A stretch of DNA of 64,000 nt. Origin: Candidatus Heimdallarchaeota archaeon (lineage in GTDB: Archaea > Asgardarchaeota > Heimdallarchaeia > Hodarchaeales > Hodarchaeaceae). The translations under genes and the position numbers were made by a program. Location: contig RDOB01000003.1 in the NCBI GenBank assembly GCA_011364965.1, forward strand, positions 336,276 through 400,275, written 5' to 3'. The notes beneath the pieces are model-generated. The model searched no databases and was not told where the DNA came from. It saw only the letters and a program-made list of their open reading frames with translations. Shown here piece after piece: positions 33,684-35,749 of the stretch (the stretch's first letter is position 1; every line of letters begins with the position of its first letter).

Positions 33684-33724
33684 AAATATATTTAAACTAT
33701 GTGTTGACAGATATTCATCAACAC
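33684..33724 (+). promoter_or_regulatory. TATA-like box (AAATATATTTAAA, 33684-33696) followed by the inverted repeat GTGTTGA-N10-TCAACAC (33701-33724)
   Basis: Read directly. The repeat sits where an archaeal transcription start would be expected, about 25 nt after the TATA. Confidence 0.4.
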
Positions 33725-33754
33725 ATTGACACATTCTATAACCGCAATTTACGC

Positions 33755-34054
33755 ATGATTCCTCTCCTTGTTGATGTGTATACCTGTATGGTGTCTAAAA
33801 TGGCAATAGCTGACCAAACCAAACCACTTGATGAGTCTTTCACTCCTAACTTGTCTCATCTTCCCAAATCGGCTCAAGAAGTCTATTCACTTCTTCGTAT
33901 TAATGGGGCGCTGAAACCAGGGGAAATTGGTAATTATACCAGATTATCTAATCGAACTATTCGCTATGCTTTGAAAATCTTGGTGGATGACCTCTTAATC
34001 AAGCGCGTACCAGATTTACATGACTTACGTTCGCATTATTATTCACTTAATTAG
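33755..34054 (+). CDS. Small winged-helix DNA-binding protein (TrmB/MarR-like)
   Basis: SAQEVYSLLRINGALKPGEIGNYTRLSNRTIRYALKILVDDLLIKRV. The track ORF starts at GTG 33701 inside the predicted operator/TSS, so ATG 33755 is preferred. Confidence 0.55.
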   Translation: MIPLLVDVYTCMVSKMAIADQTKPLDESFTPNLSHLPKSAQEVYSLLRINGALKPGEIGNYTRLSNRTIRYALKILVDDLLIKRVPDLHDLRSHYYSLN

Positions 34055-34080
34055 CTTACTCAGTGCTTGGTACAATAGAT

Positions 34081-34185
34081 AAAGGCTTCGGTGAGACAAT
34101 GTGGTGTAAGTAATTATTTGTGGGTTAGAATTACCTTCACCGACTTCTTTCGCGGGTTCCTCTAGAATTATCCCGAAGCCTTTTT
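34081..34185 (+). other. Structured intergenic element: long-range perfect 11-bp stem enclosing an imperfect 13-bp hairpin, ending in T5
   Basis: AAAGGCTTCGG (34081-34091) pairs with CCGAAGCCTTT (34173-34183). The inner pair is GGTGTAAGTAATT (34103-34115) with AATTACCTTCACC (34129-34141), 11 of 13 bp. An alternative pairing is TCGGTGA (34088-34094) with TCACCGA (34137-34143). T-run at 34181-34185. Confidence 0.4.
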
Positions 34186-34187
34186 AT

Positions 34188-34201
34188 TTGATGATCATCA
34201 A
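34188..34201. promoter_or_regulatory. Perfect 14-bp palindrome TTGATGATCATCAA upstream of the second cassette gene
   Basis: Read directly. It is followed by further TTGACA motifs at 34210 and 34247. Confidence 0.4.
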
Positions 34202-34228
34202 CAGCATTATTGACAACAAAATTTTATA

Positions 34229-34843
34229 TTGGTAAAGGTATTTCATTTGACAATCAGGCCAAATAATTCCGATACGGATGAATCGTTTGCCAATTCTTCA
34301 CGGTCTAAGCCTGATAACACTCTTCAGTATATGATTAATCTTCAAAAAGATTTGAAGACTGCTGCTGATAGTTTACGCTTGGAACTCCTTGGAATTCACA
34401 AAGAAATTGAAGAAATAAAAGCTACTGTAAGTGTACTCAAGGATTCGATTGAATATTTATGTGATCGAAAAGCTCTAGAAAAGCCAGGCGATGATACCGT
34501 TGGCGCTATTACTTCCGGTCTTGATCTTCTACAAAAAGCCCCTCAGCATCTTCGTCGCACTTTACAAGTCATGGTTCAGCTAAATAGTGCGACTGCAAGT
34601 CAAGTTGCTCGTCGAACTGGCAAAAGTCGCTCACTTGAAAGTGATTATCTGAACCAACTGGAACGTTTGGGAATTTTGAGTCGAAAAGATGATACAGGAA
34701 AACATGTTATCTTCGTTCATGAAAGAACTCGTTCTGAAGAAGCTGATGAGGAAAATGAGGAAAATGAAAGGAATAATGATGAAGATAGTACGAGGGAAAA
34801 AATTCAACAAATGCAACAAACTGCACGTGATGCACGACAATAA
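34229..34843 (+). CDS. Coiled-coil plus winged-helix protein with acidic C-terminal tail
   Basis: Heptad-like LKTAADSLRLELLGIHKEIEEIKATVSVLKDSIEYL. wHTH is LRRTLQVMVQLNSATASQVARRTGKSRSLESDYLNQLERLGILSR. Tail is SEEADEENEENERNNDED. TTG start; ATG 34331 is an alternative. Confidence 0.5.
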   Translation: MVKVFHLTIRPNNSDTDESFANSSRSKPDNTLQYMINLQKDLKTAADSLRLELLGIHKEIEEIKATVSVLKDSIEYLCDRKALEKPGDDTVGAITSGLDLLQKAPQHLRRTLQVMVQLNSATASQVARRTGKSRSLESDYLNQLERLGILSRKDDTGKHVIFVHERTRSEEADEENEENERNNDEDSTREKIQQMQQTARDARQ

Positions 34844-34903
34844 ACTTATTTATATAAACTAATTTAATTGTTTTTAGAACTTTTAATATAGAGGTGTTTT
34901 TAT

Positions 34904-35698
34904 ATGAAAATAATTAGTTTCCACAGTTATAAAGGTGGGACTGGCAAGACGCATCTTTCTGCTAACCTAGCAACCATTTTAGCACGCAAAGGGTTTAAAA
35001 CAGCGATTCTTGACTTAGATTTTCGGGGACCCAACCTTCAGACTTTATGTGGAATTGAATCTGAAGTTACTATCAATGATTTGCTATTTGATCCCGATTT
35101 AACTGGTCAAGATATTTTAGTCTCTTTTGAAGATCAATATAAAATTCCGTTATTTGCCGCTTTCGCATCTACTGACTTTCGCAAGATGGGAGACATTGTT
35201 AGAGCTGATAAAAAGCAACGTCAGCGGTCCTTGAAGCGTATCTTACGATTACGTGACGAACTAAGTGAAAATGGGTTTGATTATACCATTATTGATACTA
35301 GTCCAGGTGTCCAAATGGAATCTATTGATGGTCTAGTTATCTCCGATGCTACCTGTTTAGTCCTTAAAGCTGATGATTTTGATATTAGTGGAACTAAGAG
35401 TATGGTTACTCAACTCTACTCGCTACTTGATAGTAAAAACTATGTTGTACTCAATCGAGTTGTCGCTGAAACTTGTCCTCCTGAAGAGGGGGTCTGGAGT
35501 AGTGCTGATCTCAAACTTGTAGAAAAATTTGAGAAAACTATTAAGGATGAAATGCGTATGGACGTCATTACCTCCATTCCATGTTTCTGTGAAGTTGCTC
35601 GGGAAGGGTCACGCAATATTTTTAGTTTGAAGCATCCCGAACACCCTTTCAGTCAATATATCGAAAAATTAGGGAATGCATTACTCAAAGGATTGTAA
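34904..35698 (+). CDS. ParA/MinD-family P-loop ATPase
   Basis: Deviant Walker A SYKGGTGKTHLSANLA, A' box ILDLDFRGPN, and Walker B YTIIDTSPG. Confidence 0.8.
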   Translation: MKIISFHSYKGGTGKTHLSANLATILARKGFKTAILDLDFRGPNLQTLCGIESEVTINDLLFDPDLTGQDILVSFEDQYKIPLFAAFASTDFRKMGDIVRADKKQRQRSLKRILRLRDELSENGFDYTIIDTSPGVQMESIDGLVISDATCLVLKADDFDISGTKSMVTQLYSLLDSKNYVVLNRVVAETCPPEEGVWSSADLKLVEKFEKTIKDEMRMDVITSIPCFCEVAREGSRNIFSLKHPEHPFSQYIEKLGNALLKGL

Positions 35699-35722
35699 AC
35701 AAAGATAAAAAAGAATGGGTGA

Positions 35723-35742
35723 GGGAATTTCATTCCCTTTTT
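35723..35742. terminator. Hairpin GGGAAT-TTC-ATTCCC plus T5 between convergent genes
   Basis: Arms at 35723-35728 and 35732-35737. T5 at 35738-35742. Confidence 0.45.
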
Positions 35743-35749
35743 AATTGCG

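Follow-up and report, generated by a model that had tools for sequence, protein, structure and literature searches.

The DNA analysed here, called the window, is a stretch of 64,000 nucleotides (nt) at positions 336276 to 400275 of contig C11, which belongs to a 2.97-Mb Asgard archaeal metagenome-assembled genome of 87% completeness (Candidatus Heimdallarchaeota archaeon, order Hodarchaeales). Within 33.7 to 35.7 kb of the window lies a cassette of three open reading frames, A, B and C, all on the + strand. Gene A (33800..34054) encodes a small winged-helix protein of 84 amino acids (aa) (LPKSAQEVY...LSNRTIRYALKILVD...PDLHDLRSHYY), gene B (34247..34843) a protein of 198 aa with a TTG start that combines a coiled coil with a TrmB-like winged helix, as assigned by profile search and an AlphaFold2 (AF2) model, and gene C (34904..35698) an ATPase of 264 aa that belongs to the MinD/ParA class by its motifs, hidden Markov model (HMM) scores and AF2 model. 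The cassette is closed by a terminator-like hairpin, GAGGGAAT-TTC-ATTCCCTT, which is followed by TTTAATT (35721..35746, +; hairpin and T-run at 35721-35739). What is new here is an archaeal ParA/MinD subfamily that is defined by a sequence signature and has a coiled-coil winged-helix partner, with three genes in Hodarchaeales.

The initial annotation had predicted a cassette of three co-oriented genes for a winged-helix protein of ~99 aa, a coiled-coil protein with a winged helix-turn-helix (HTH) and an acidic tail, and a deviant-Walker-A ATPase, followed by a hairpin terminator. The common orientation, the domain structure of the middle protein (seen in its AF2 model), the ATPase with its signature lysine, and the hairpin were all borne out. 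The first gene indeed codes for a small winged-helix protein, but its length had to be corrected to 84 aa: according to the alignment of orthologues, which all open with MA(A)I(D/E), translation starts at ATG 33800 (MAIADQ...) and not at 33755 or 33701. The start of B at TTG 34247 agrees with the database proteins P0001 and P0002.

The ATPase encoded by gene C

C has the deviant Walker A sequence SYKGGTGKT and displays the motifs HSYKGGTGKT, DLDFRGP, IDTSPG, IPCFC and PEHPF. In the clade around C, the motifs HS(Y/F)KGGTGK(T/S), DxDFRxP, (I/V/L)PCxC and PxHxF are invariant, as are residues K10, K15, D37/D39 and D131. The matches of C to AAA_31, CbiA and ParA in Pfam exceed their cut-offs, and C is a member of the ParA/MinD (deviant Walker A) superfamily with the SIMIBI fold. 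The signature lysine and the catalytic Asp are strictly conserved, which argues for a full ATP-dimerization cycle, as is typical of positioning ATPases. The AF2 model of C has a predicted local distance difference test score (pLDDT) of 91 and a predicted template modelling (TM) score of 0.90, and the nearest structures found with Foldseek are FlhG, FleN, archaeal MinD, Soj, Escherichia coli MinD, ParA and McdA, with TM scores of 0.72 to 0.77; Mrp/ApbC and ATPase-type HypB are further away (0.57 to 0.64).

No curated NCBIfam family threshold was passed by C. The best-scoring family is minD_arch (TIGR01969; 53.4 bits, cut-off 201.75), TIGR01968 gives 47.2 bits (cut-off 212.9) and NF041546 gives 47 bits (cut-off 180). 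MinD/FlhG/FleN-type matches score 53 to 80 bits, far under the family cut-offs of ~200 bits. The 31 clade members reach E values of at best 1.7e-22 (minD_arch) and 1.8e-21 (minD_bact), too weak for a cut-off score. The best sequence match in the Protein Data Bank (PDB) is 1g3q (E 8e-10), and the ParA-like partition family of PHROG matches with an E value of 7e-26. Membership in the MinD family proper (TIGR01969/TIGR01968) was rejected, on account of these scores and the lack of a C-terminal amphipathic membrane-targeting tail: in the model, the last core helix takes up residues 248-263 of 264, and the orthologues are not extended beyond it either. At its other end, C begins directly at beta-1, without an N-terminal HTH.

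That the ATPase might group with Mrp- or CooC-type proteins had been named in the initial annotation as a counter-case, but curated HMM scores and Foldseek, on which the class assignment is based, place it in the MinD/ParA positioning class. Mrp/NBP35/ApbC, CooC and ATPase-type HypB were discarded as candidates, with matches that cover the P-loop only (MrpORP and ApbC, 30 to 47 bits against cut-offs of 348 to 450), lower TM scores and a differently placed CxC. Mrp-type proteins have a CxxC after the ENM strand, and an N-terminal CxC is found in metallochaperone families; the CxC of the C clade lies in the later IPCxC strand and differs in position from the Cys motifs of Mrp/NBP35, CooC and Get3. 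Cys227-x-Cys229 and His247 (plus His7) are invariant across Asgard archaea and Bathyarchaeia and were found by motif search in most ATPases of other phyla. The metal or redox site that they suggest has not been described for MinD/ParA positioning ATPases.

The protein encoded by gene B

B was modelled with AF2 from 10 sequences (pLDDT 65). In the model, residues 1-20 are disordered and Lys rich and are followed by a single helix of 53 residues (21-73, the coiled coil). A linker leads to a canonical winged helix (91-158), in which SRSLESDYLNQL forms the third helix, and two more helices come after it, an acidic one (159-173) and, at the C terminus, a last one (181-197). The winged helix holds the invariant helix SRxLESDYLNQL. 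Foldseek returned only generic winged helices of MarR, ArsR and TFE, the family nearest to B in Pfam is TrmB, although below threshold, and a phmmer search of all PDB sequences gave no relative at E<=1. Given these outcomes, B is neither a ParB nor a ribbon-helix-helix protein, in accordance with the earlier impression that the middle protein does not resemble ParB. As modelled, the layout of B, with a flexible basic N terminus, a dimerization helix and a DNA-binding domain, would be like that of small centromere-binding proteins. B evolves fast, with only 35 to 45% identity among sister genomes.

The B-C pair in other archaea

With a threshold of E<=1e-3, a search with the B profile gave 740 cluster representatives; with E<=1e-10, it gave 244. 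Most of these proteins have 100 to 150 aa and consist of a coiled coil and a winged helix; in some, the B-like winged helix is fused to PAS, zinc-ribbon or membrane domains. When one genome per GTDB species was scanned, at least 428 B-like genes with the sequence R[APS]xES[DAS]YLNQ were found in archaeal species representatives. In 68 of the 80 best B-like loci, an ATPase of the C clade lies directly downstream on the same strand at a gap of -7 to +81 bp; in 2 more the ATPase is found at ~320 bp, and in 10 of the 80 the B-like gene stands without an ATPase. These 80 loci span at least 8 archaeal lineages. The hosts of the pair are Hodarchaeales, many Bathyarchaeia, Nezhaarchaeales, Methanomethylicota, Hadesarchaea, Desulfurococcales, Thermoplasmata, Methanoliparum, Methanosarcinales and Nitrososphaerota. 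The reverse look-up gave the same picture: upstream of each of the C homologues with 44%, 39% and 38% identity there is a small winged-helix gene. The evolutionary unit is the B-C pair, spread over archaeal phyla, and it is an ancient two-gene operon that is apparently unstudied; the literature searched held no description of a B-C or A-B-C module.

The sole partner that the C-clade ATPase keeps across phyla is a protein of DNA-binding type. Moreover, 14 viral contigs of IMG/VR carry a B-like gene, and none of them has the ATPase. Since the winged-helix family of B also occurs solo, in viruses and in 10 of the 80 cellular loci, it is most simply taken to be a DNA-binding domain. Bathyarchaeia are without A, and the promoters of their B-like genes have in common a nearly identical transcription factor B recognition element (BRE) and TATA box, cgtaagaCTTAATAAA, followed by TGTACAnnTGTACA. 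The latter site occurs only 1 to 4 times per Bathyarchaeia genome, and one of the copies is at the promoter of the module itself, which is consistent with autoregulation by the B-like proteins. In L073, L081, L087 and L093-L122 (all Bathyarchaeia), cgtaagaCTTAATAAA is followed ~20 nt later by TGTACAnnTGTA(C/A)A. In L076, L085, L089 and L090, where the B-like genes have no adjacent ATPase gene, GTGTTAC...GTAACAC palindromes flank the TATA box instead.

Gene A and its DNA boxes

A has only weak MarR/HTH matches in Pfam and no PadR match. It is one member of a family of winged-helix proteins of ~80 to 100 aa that has 3 to 8 copies per genome in the class. That A and B are paralogues was considered and dropped, since the profile comparison was not significant.

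The predicted promoter of gene A has the TATA-like box aaatatatttaaact (33684..33698, +). It is followed by an operator-like inverted repeat, ATGTGTTGA-N10-TCAACACAT (33699..33726, +), with arms of 9 nt that are 100% complementary and hold two TGTTGA boxes; a third box, TGTTGATG, lies in the gene A leader (33769..33776, +). The predicted promoter region of B (34181..34216, +) contains the TATA-like ctttttattt, the 14-bp palindrome TTGATGATCATCAA (34188-34201), an ATCAACA box (34197-34203) and a TTGACA (34210-34215). Palindromes and repeated TTGACA motifs upstream of A and B had already been pointed out in the initial annotation. They are present, and TTGACA is enriched, with 4 copies on the + strand in the 549 nt from 33704 to 34252 versus ~0.27 expected from the window-wide density, but comparison across species gave TGTTGA(T/C), often TGTTGATGA, as the true repeat unit.

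Arrays of 2 to 5 copies of TGTTGA(T/C), with an 11-bp period in the clearest cases, are found upstream of A in every orthologous locus and begin 8 to 12 nt 3' of a cTTTATAAg-type TATA box at the matching position. In 11 of 12 orthologous loci, 2 to 4 boxes occur per 160 nt upstream of A, versus a background of 0.11, and these comparative counts are the strongest evidence that the boxes are not due to chance. Several sister genomes have complementary ATCAACA boxes 3' of the B TATA box, and L024, which has no A, shows none in front of B. Elsewhere in the cassette genome, no other cluster of three or more boxes was found; the few tandem GTTGAT pairs are intragenic or without TATA context. This lack of other clusters rules out dispersed centromere arrays in that genome.

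In sister genomes, triple TGTTGAT arrays were also found just 3' of a cTTTATAAg box upstream of other genes (L033:522-550 and 1322-1350; L034:2870-3089; L035:2954-2982; L036:3864-3884). They have an 11-bp period in L033 to L035 and are abutting 7-bp repeats in L036. The genes that they precede encode a secreted protein of 218 aa, a protein of 150 aa of no known family and a zinc-ribbon protein with an MJ1316 domain. These arrays look like a small regulon of the box-binding factor. The cassette genome has no homologues of the 218-aa and 150-aa genes and is without the extra box-regulated genes of its sisters.

A site just 3' of the TATA box is the classical arrangement for an archaeal repressor. 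Because the boxes have this position and also precede unrelated genes, A looks like a site-specific repressor of itself, of B-C and, in the larger sister genomes, of a small regulon. It looks more like a transcription factor than like a dedicated centromere binder.

Conservation and surroundings of the cassette

To survey the distribution of the triad, tblastn was run with the cassette proteins on regions of 12 kb taken from related genomes, which carry the names Hodarchaeota, Hodarchaeales, "Ca. Hodarchaeum mangrovi" and Heimdallarchaeota B3_Heim. The order A-B-C is kept in the 11 sister genomes examined, and the co-occurrence of the three genes in relatives, on which the initial annotation had made its reading depend, was thereby found. 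Across these genomes C is 84 to 87% identical (~86%), A is 55 to 70% identical (~60%; 55 to 78% over all A orthologues), and B is ~38% identical. Orthologous A and orthologous C occur together in 14 genomes, with 2 more broken at contig ends. Since A and C are present together or absent together, their distribution is linked and the module is accessory. A more distant lineage of Hodarchaeales, in which C is 55% identical, also has the triad, and a sister family (L024) has B-C only. A is a lineage-specific addition to an older B-C core. In the more distant lineage (L040:3100-3957), B has 285 aa with five tandem repeats of the first winged-helix helix segment (LPxxLQxxYxxLLxxxK...), and a complete winged helix follows only after the last LPxxLQxxY repeat. 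With 2.97 Mb at 87% completeness, the cassette genome is well below the size of most others in its genus, which have 3.2 to 5.9 Mb.

The initial annotation had also left room for a plasmid remnant. A partition cassette left behind on the chromosome by a plasmid, a virus or another integrated element would agree with a gene order that resembles aspA-parB-parA of plasmid pNOB8, with the PHROG match of C and with the fast evolution of B. However, the flanks are shared with the sister genomes: a convergent pair of ABC-transporter genes downstream of the cassette is kept in 10 of the 11, and this synteny argues against an island. Likewise, the identity of C across species fits vertical descent. The best match of C in a tblastn search of 72,556 plasmids is bacterial and only 31% identical, the viral contigs with a B-like gene all lack the ATPase, and neither an integrase nor a tRNA gene was found near the cassette. 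By synteny, plasmid tblastn and IMG/VR, a plasmid or virus origin is essentially excluded, and we regard any kind of remnant as extremely improbable.

The remaining features of the locus are the spacers and the transcript data. The B-C spacer (34844..34903, +) contains a TATA-like tttatataaa and a ribosome-binding-like GGTG 8 nt 5' of the ATG; it measures 15 to 68 nt in members of the genus and ranges from -7 to +34 nt in most of the other phyla. Folding of the A-B spacer gave a long hairpin followed by a T-run (34081..34183, +), in which a perfect 11-bp outer stem, AAAGGCTTCGG / CCGAAGCCTTT, surrounds an inner hairpin; it is probably the end of the A transcript. A structured RNA was rejected for this spacer, since the folding z-score is only -1.6, the spacer is unconserved in sister genomes, and there is no Rfam match; no Rfam RNA was found elsewhere near the cassette. 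Transcript support comes from one metatranscriptome contig (35376-35591), which lies inside C alone and cannot show cotranscription.

Relation to known systems

The initial annotation had likened the cassette to the AspA-ParB-ParA system, and the order of a small winged-helix binder, a middle protein and a Walker-type ATPase is in fact shared with pNOB8 of Sulfolobus (Schumacher et al. 2015; reviewed in PMC5120986). There, the small winged-helix protein is described as binding near its own promoter, and the motor need not touch the site-specific binder. ParB of pNOB8 has a ParB/Srx N-terminal domain and a CenpA/histone-like C-terminal domain, whereas B is a coiled coil with a TrmB-like winged helix. 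The pNOB8 system is plasmid borne; the cassette is chromosomal, its ATPase forms a separate clade with CxC and His, its conserved unit is B-C, and A is optional. Neither the middle protein nor a location on a mobile replicon is shared, and the cassette is not a member of the AspA-ParB-ParA family. AspA is a small, PadR-like winged-helix protein that nucleates on a centromere upstream of its operon. A is likewise a small winged-helix protein with conserved repeat boxes upstream; it gave no PadR-type match, and in sister genomes its boxes also stand before unrelated genes.

Type Ib systems (ParF-ParG of TP228, delta-omega of pSM19035), HpaAB and SegAB have a small ParA-class ATPase without an N-terminal HTH, as does the cassette with C. 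By analogy, the cassette would also share with them a small dimeric DNA-binding partner with a flexible N terminus, and operon autoregulation at promoter repeats. The partners of ParF, delta and SegA are ribbon-helix-helix folds. In these systems, the partner is encoded downstream of the ATPase, whereas B, a coiled-coil winged helix, is encoded upstream. According to the account of HpaAB in PMC13722703, a bacterial-type ParA is combined with the ribbon-helix-helix protein HpaB. According to PMC5120986, segA (a ParA) has downstream of it segB, which encodes an archaea-specific DNA-binding protein. Membership in the SegAB family was rejected because the gene order is reversed and B has no PDB relative at E<=1, grounds that do not include a direct alignment with SegB.

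In both sequence and structure, C is matched best by MinD, FlhG and FleN (TM scores of 0.72 to 0.79), but neither MinC/MinE nor a FleQ-type partner is encoded adjacent to C. ParABS type Ia and the chromosomal Soj-Spo0J, whose partner is a ParB with an HTH and a CTPase, were excluded, since there is no ParB-like domain in A or B, C is without the N-terminal HTH of type Ia ParA, and NF041546 stays below its cut-off. Antiphage defence was likewise rejected, as PADLOC gave only weak winged-helix matches (SoFic, Csa3) and a P-loop fragment. In its logic the cassette resembles KorA-IncC-KorB of the bacterial plasmid RK2, where a ParA-class ATPase, a partner with operators in several promoters and a small HTH corepressor merge regulation and partition in one module. 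KorB, however, belongs to the ParB family, and the RK2 proteins have no sequence relationship to A or B.

Proposed function

We propose that the cassette forms an accessory module of ParA type, linked to DNA and regulated by itself, that serves positioning or partition and has a new class of partner; we give this reading a probability of roughly 45%. It is favoured by the conservation of triad and pair, the MinD/ParA fold of C and its PHROG match, the DNA-binding type of the only partner of C, the intact residues for ATP-dependent dimerization, the absence of a membrane anchor, the layout of B and the operators at the promoter of the module itself. The module is chromosomal, vertically inherited and dispensable, with the ancient two-gene operon as its core. 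In the proposed mechanism, B, dimeric by virtue of its coiled coil, would bind a few chromosomal sites including its own promoter, and C would be a nucleotide-switch ATPase that acts on or with DNA-bound B. B would contact the ATP-bound dimer of C via its flexible, Lys-rich N terminus or its tails, and as C turns over ATP, the B-DNA complex would be positioned or redistributed in the style of type Ib partition. Hodarchaeales would have added A as a small repressor that sits on the TGTTGA(T/C) boxes just 3' of the TATA boxes at the A and B promoters and sets the expression of the module. The gene structures, folds, motifs, conservation of triad and pair, and conservation and position of the boxes are observed; DNA binding by A and B, the contact between B and C, the cargo and the partition function are inferred from them.

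Several observations weigh against this proposal. In sister genomes, the boxes of A also stand before unrelated genes, in identical triple arrays, as would be expected of simple transcription control. Each genome has few operator sites, and they form no centromere-like cluster. The cassette contig carries no orc1/cdc6; these genes sit on other contigs, which rules out an origin-proximal placement like that of parAB. Five genomes, among them G010, the closed 4.9-Mb genome of a member of the same genus, lack both A and C. Since it is missing from this closed genome, the module cannot be the essential segregation machine, and claims of essentiality are limited by the fact that some members of the genus do without it. 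The curated models score C as slightly closer to MinD than to ParA. The CxC and His residues of C suggest a candidate metal or redox site, an input that classical partition ATPases do not have. Finally, C presumably has Cys-x-Cys-Glu in place of the DNA-binding arginine region of Soj, according to an alignment made by eye, not computed.

The main rival reading is a transcriptional switch, in which A and B would be ordinary transcription factors, C would be a nucleotide-, metal- or redox-dependent coregulator that binds B and alters its binding to DNA, and nothing would be positioned. FleN is a MinD-like ATPase that modulates the transcription factor FleQ, and type Ia ParA acts as a corepressor. 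The structural neighbours of C are headed by FlhG and FleN, yet the structural distances of C to these two, to MinD, to Soj and to McdA are indistinguishable, and FleN has an AAA+ enhancer-binding protein as its partner, a type of protein that the cassette lacks. The repressor position of the boxes, also before unrelated genes, the 1 to 4 operator sites per Bathyarchaeia genome with one at the module's own promoter, the dispensability of the module in the genus and the cassette contig devoid of orc1/cdc6 all agree with a switch. So do the invariant IPCxC and PxHxF, which suggest that a ligand or redox state is sensed, and the B-like winged helices that are fused to PAS or other sensor-like domains or stand solo in viruses. 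The strictly conserved signature lysine and catalytic Asp, on the other hand, speak for the complete ATP-dimerization cycle. On balance, a pure switch appears rather unlikely to us, and the DNA-linked positioning module is preferred.

Paralogous modules and a possible protein cargo

A second pair is present in the cassette genome on the same contig, outside the window (C11:226480-227706). B' (138 aa, coiled coil and winged helix, ...GRSRGLESRYLNYL...) abuts C' (269 aa), which reads HSYRGGVGKT, with the signature Lys changed to Arg, has no CxC and keeps PHPF. Orthologues of B'-C' are found in most genomes of the genus, including those without the triad. At C12:39575-43263, a B-like protein of 149 aa is encoded near a divergent protein of 563 aa, which consists of a degenerate ParA-like N-terminal domain lacking Walker A, a middle domain and a C-terminal winged helix; open frames for similar fusions of 570 to 900 aa occur in sister genomes. 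The second pair and the 563-aa fusion indicate that the theme of winged helix and ATPase has been multiplied in this lineage. In other families of the class (L026, L027, L029-L032), ATPases 30 to 35% identical to C, mostly without CxC, are preceded by a protein of 250 to 270 aa with a conserved N-terminal domain, GPGKIRGILQIP, and a C-terminal TrmB-like winged helix. The N-terminal domain, assessed by eye only, is possibly roadblock/longin-like. This pair always has genes for V-ATPase subunits, an LSm gene and a ~720-aa gene as its neighbours.

Such modules bear on whether the cargo of the cassette could be a protein assembly instead of DNA. C would then pattern on the nucleoid and B would be the adaptor for the assembly, in the manner of McdA/McdB or ParC/ParP, with the winged helix serving autoregulation or ATPase binding. 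Several paralogous winged-helix-ATPase modules per Hodarchaeales genome are what one would expect for multiple cargos, and the ATPases of the sister families do pair with a winged-helix protein that has another, perhaps roadblock-like, N-terminal domain. Furthermore, the ESDYLNQL helix is nearly invariant across phyla while the promoter motifs differ between lineages (TGTTGA versus TGTACA), a hint that this helix could be used for a conserved contact with a protein. But no conserved candidate cargo gene is visible beside the pair across phyla, the N-terminal part of B is just a coiled coil, and the solo viral and cellular winged-helix members argue for a genuine DNA-binding domain. We consider a non-DNA cargo improbable, and DNA-linked positioning by B and C remains the preferred reading.

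Implications

In the literature searched, no genome-segregation or cargo-positioning system is described for Asgard archaea or Bathyarchaeia, and the known archaeal systems SegAB, AspA-ParBA, HpaAB and MinD4 all belong to other families. A widespread archaeal operon is now defined by a sharp sequence signature on both B and C, and candidate DNA sites are at hand, TGTTGA(T/C) arrays for Hodarchaeales and TGTACAnnTGTACA for Bathyarchaeia. B and C are small and should express easily, so that the question can be addressed directly in vitro. More speculatively, and we think this quite doubtful as a whole, B-C may be an unrecognized pan-archaeal DNA-positioning system, possibly the missing chromosome or nucleoid organizer of Asgard archaea and Bathyarchaeia. 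Its B proteins would be a new class of centromere-binding protein (coiled coil and winged helix with ESDYLNQL), and a metal or redox site (IPCxC/PxHxF) on the partner-binding face would gate its motor. In Hodarchaeales, which are the nearest relatives of eukaryotes known so far, the system would have become tripartite and been multiplied into cargo-specific paralogues. Should the module prove to be no more than a transcription switch, archaea would have in it a counterpart of FleN-FleQ; if it is true that C is metal or redox gated, this would be a new control principle for the ParA/MinD family.

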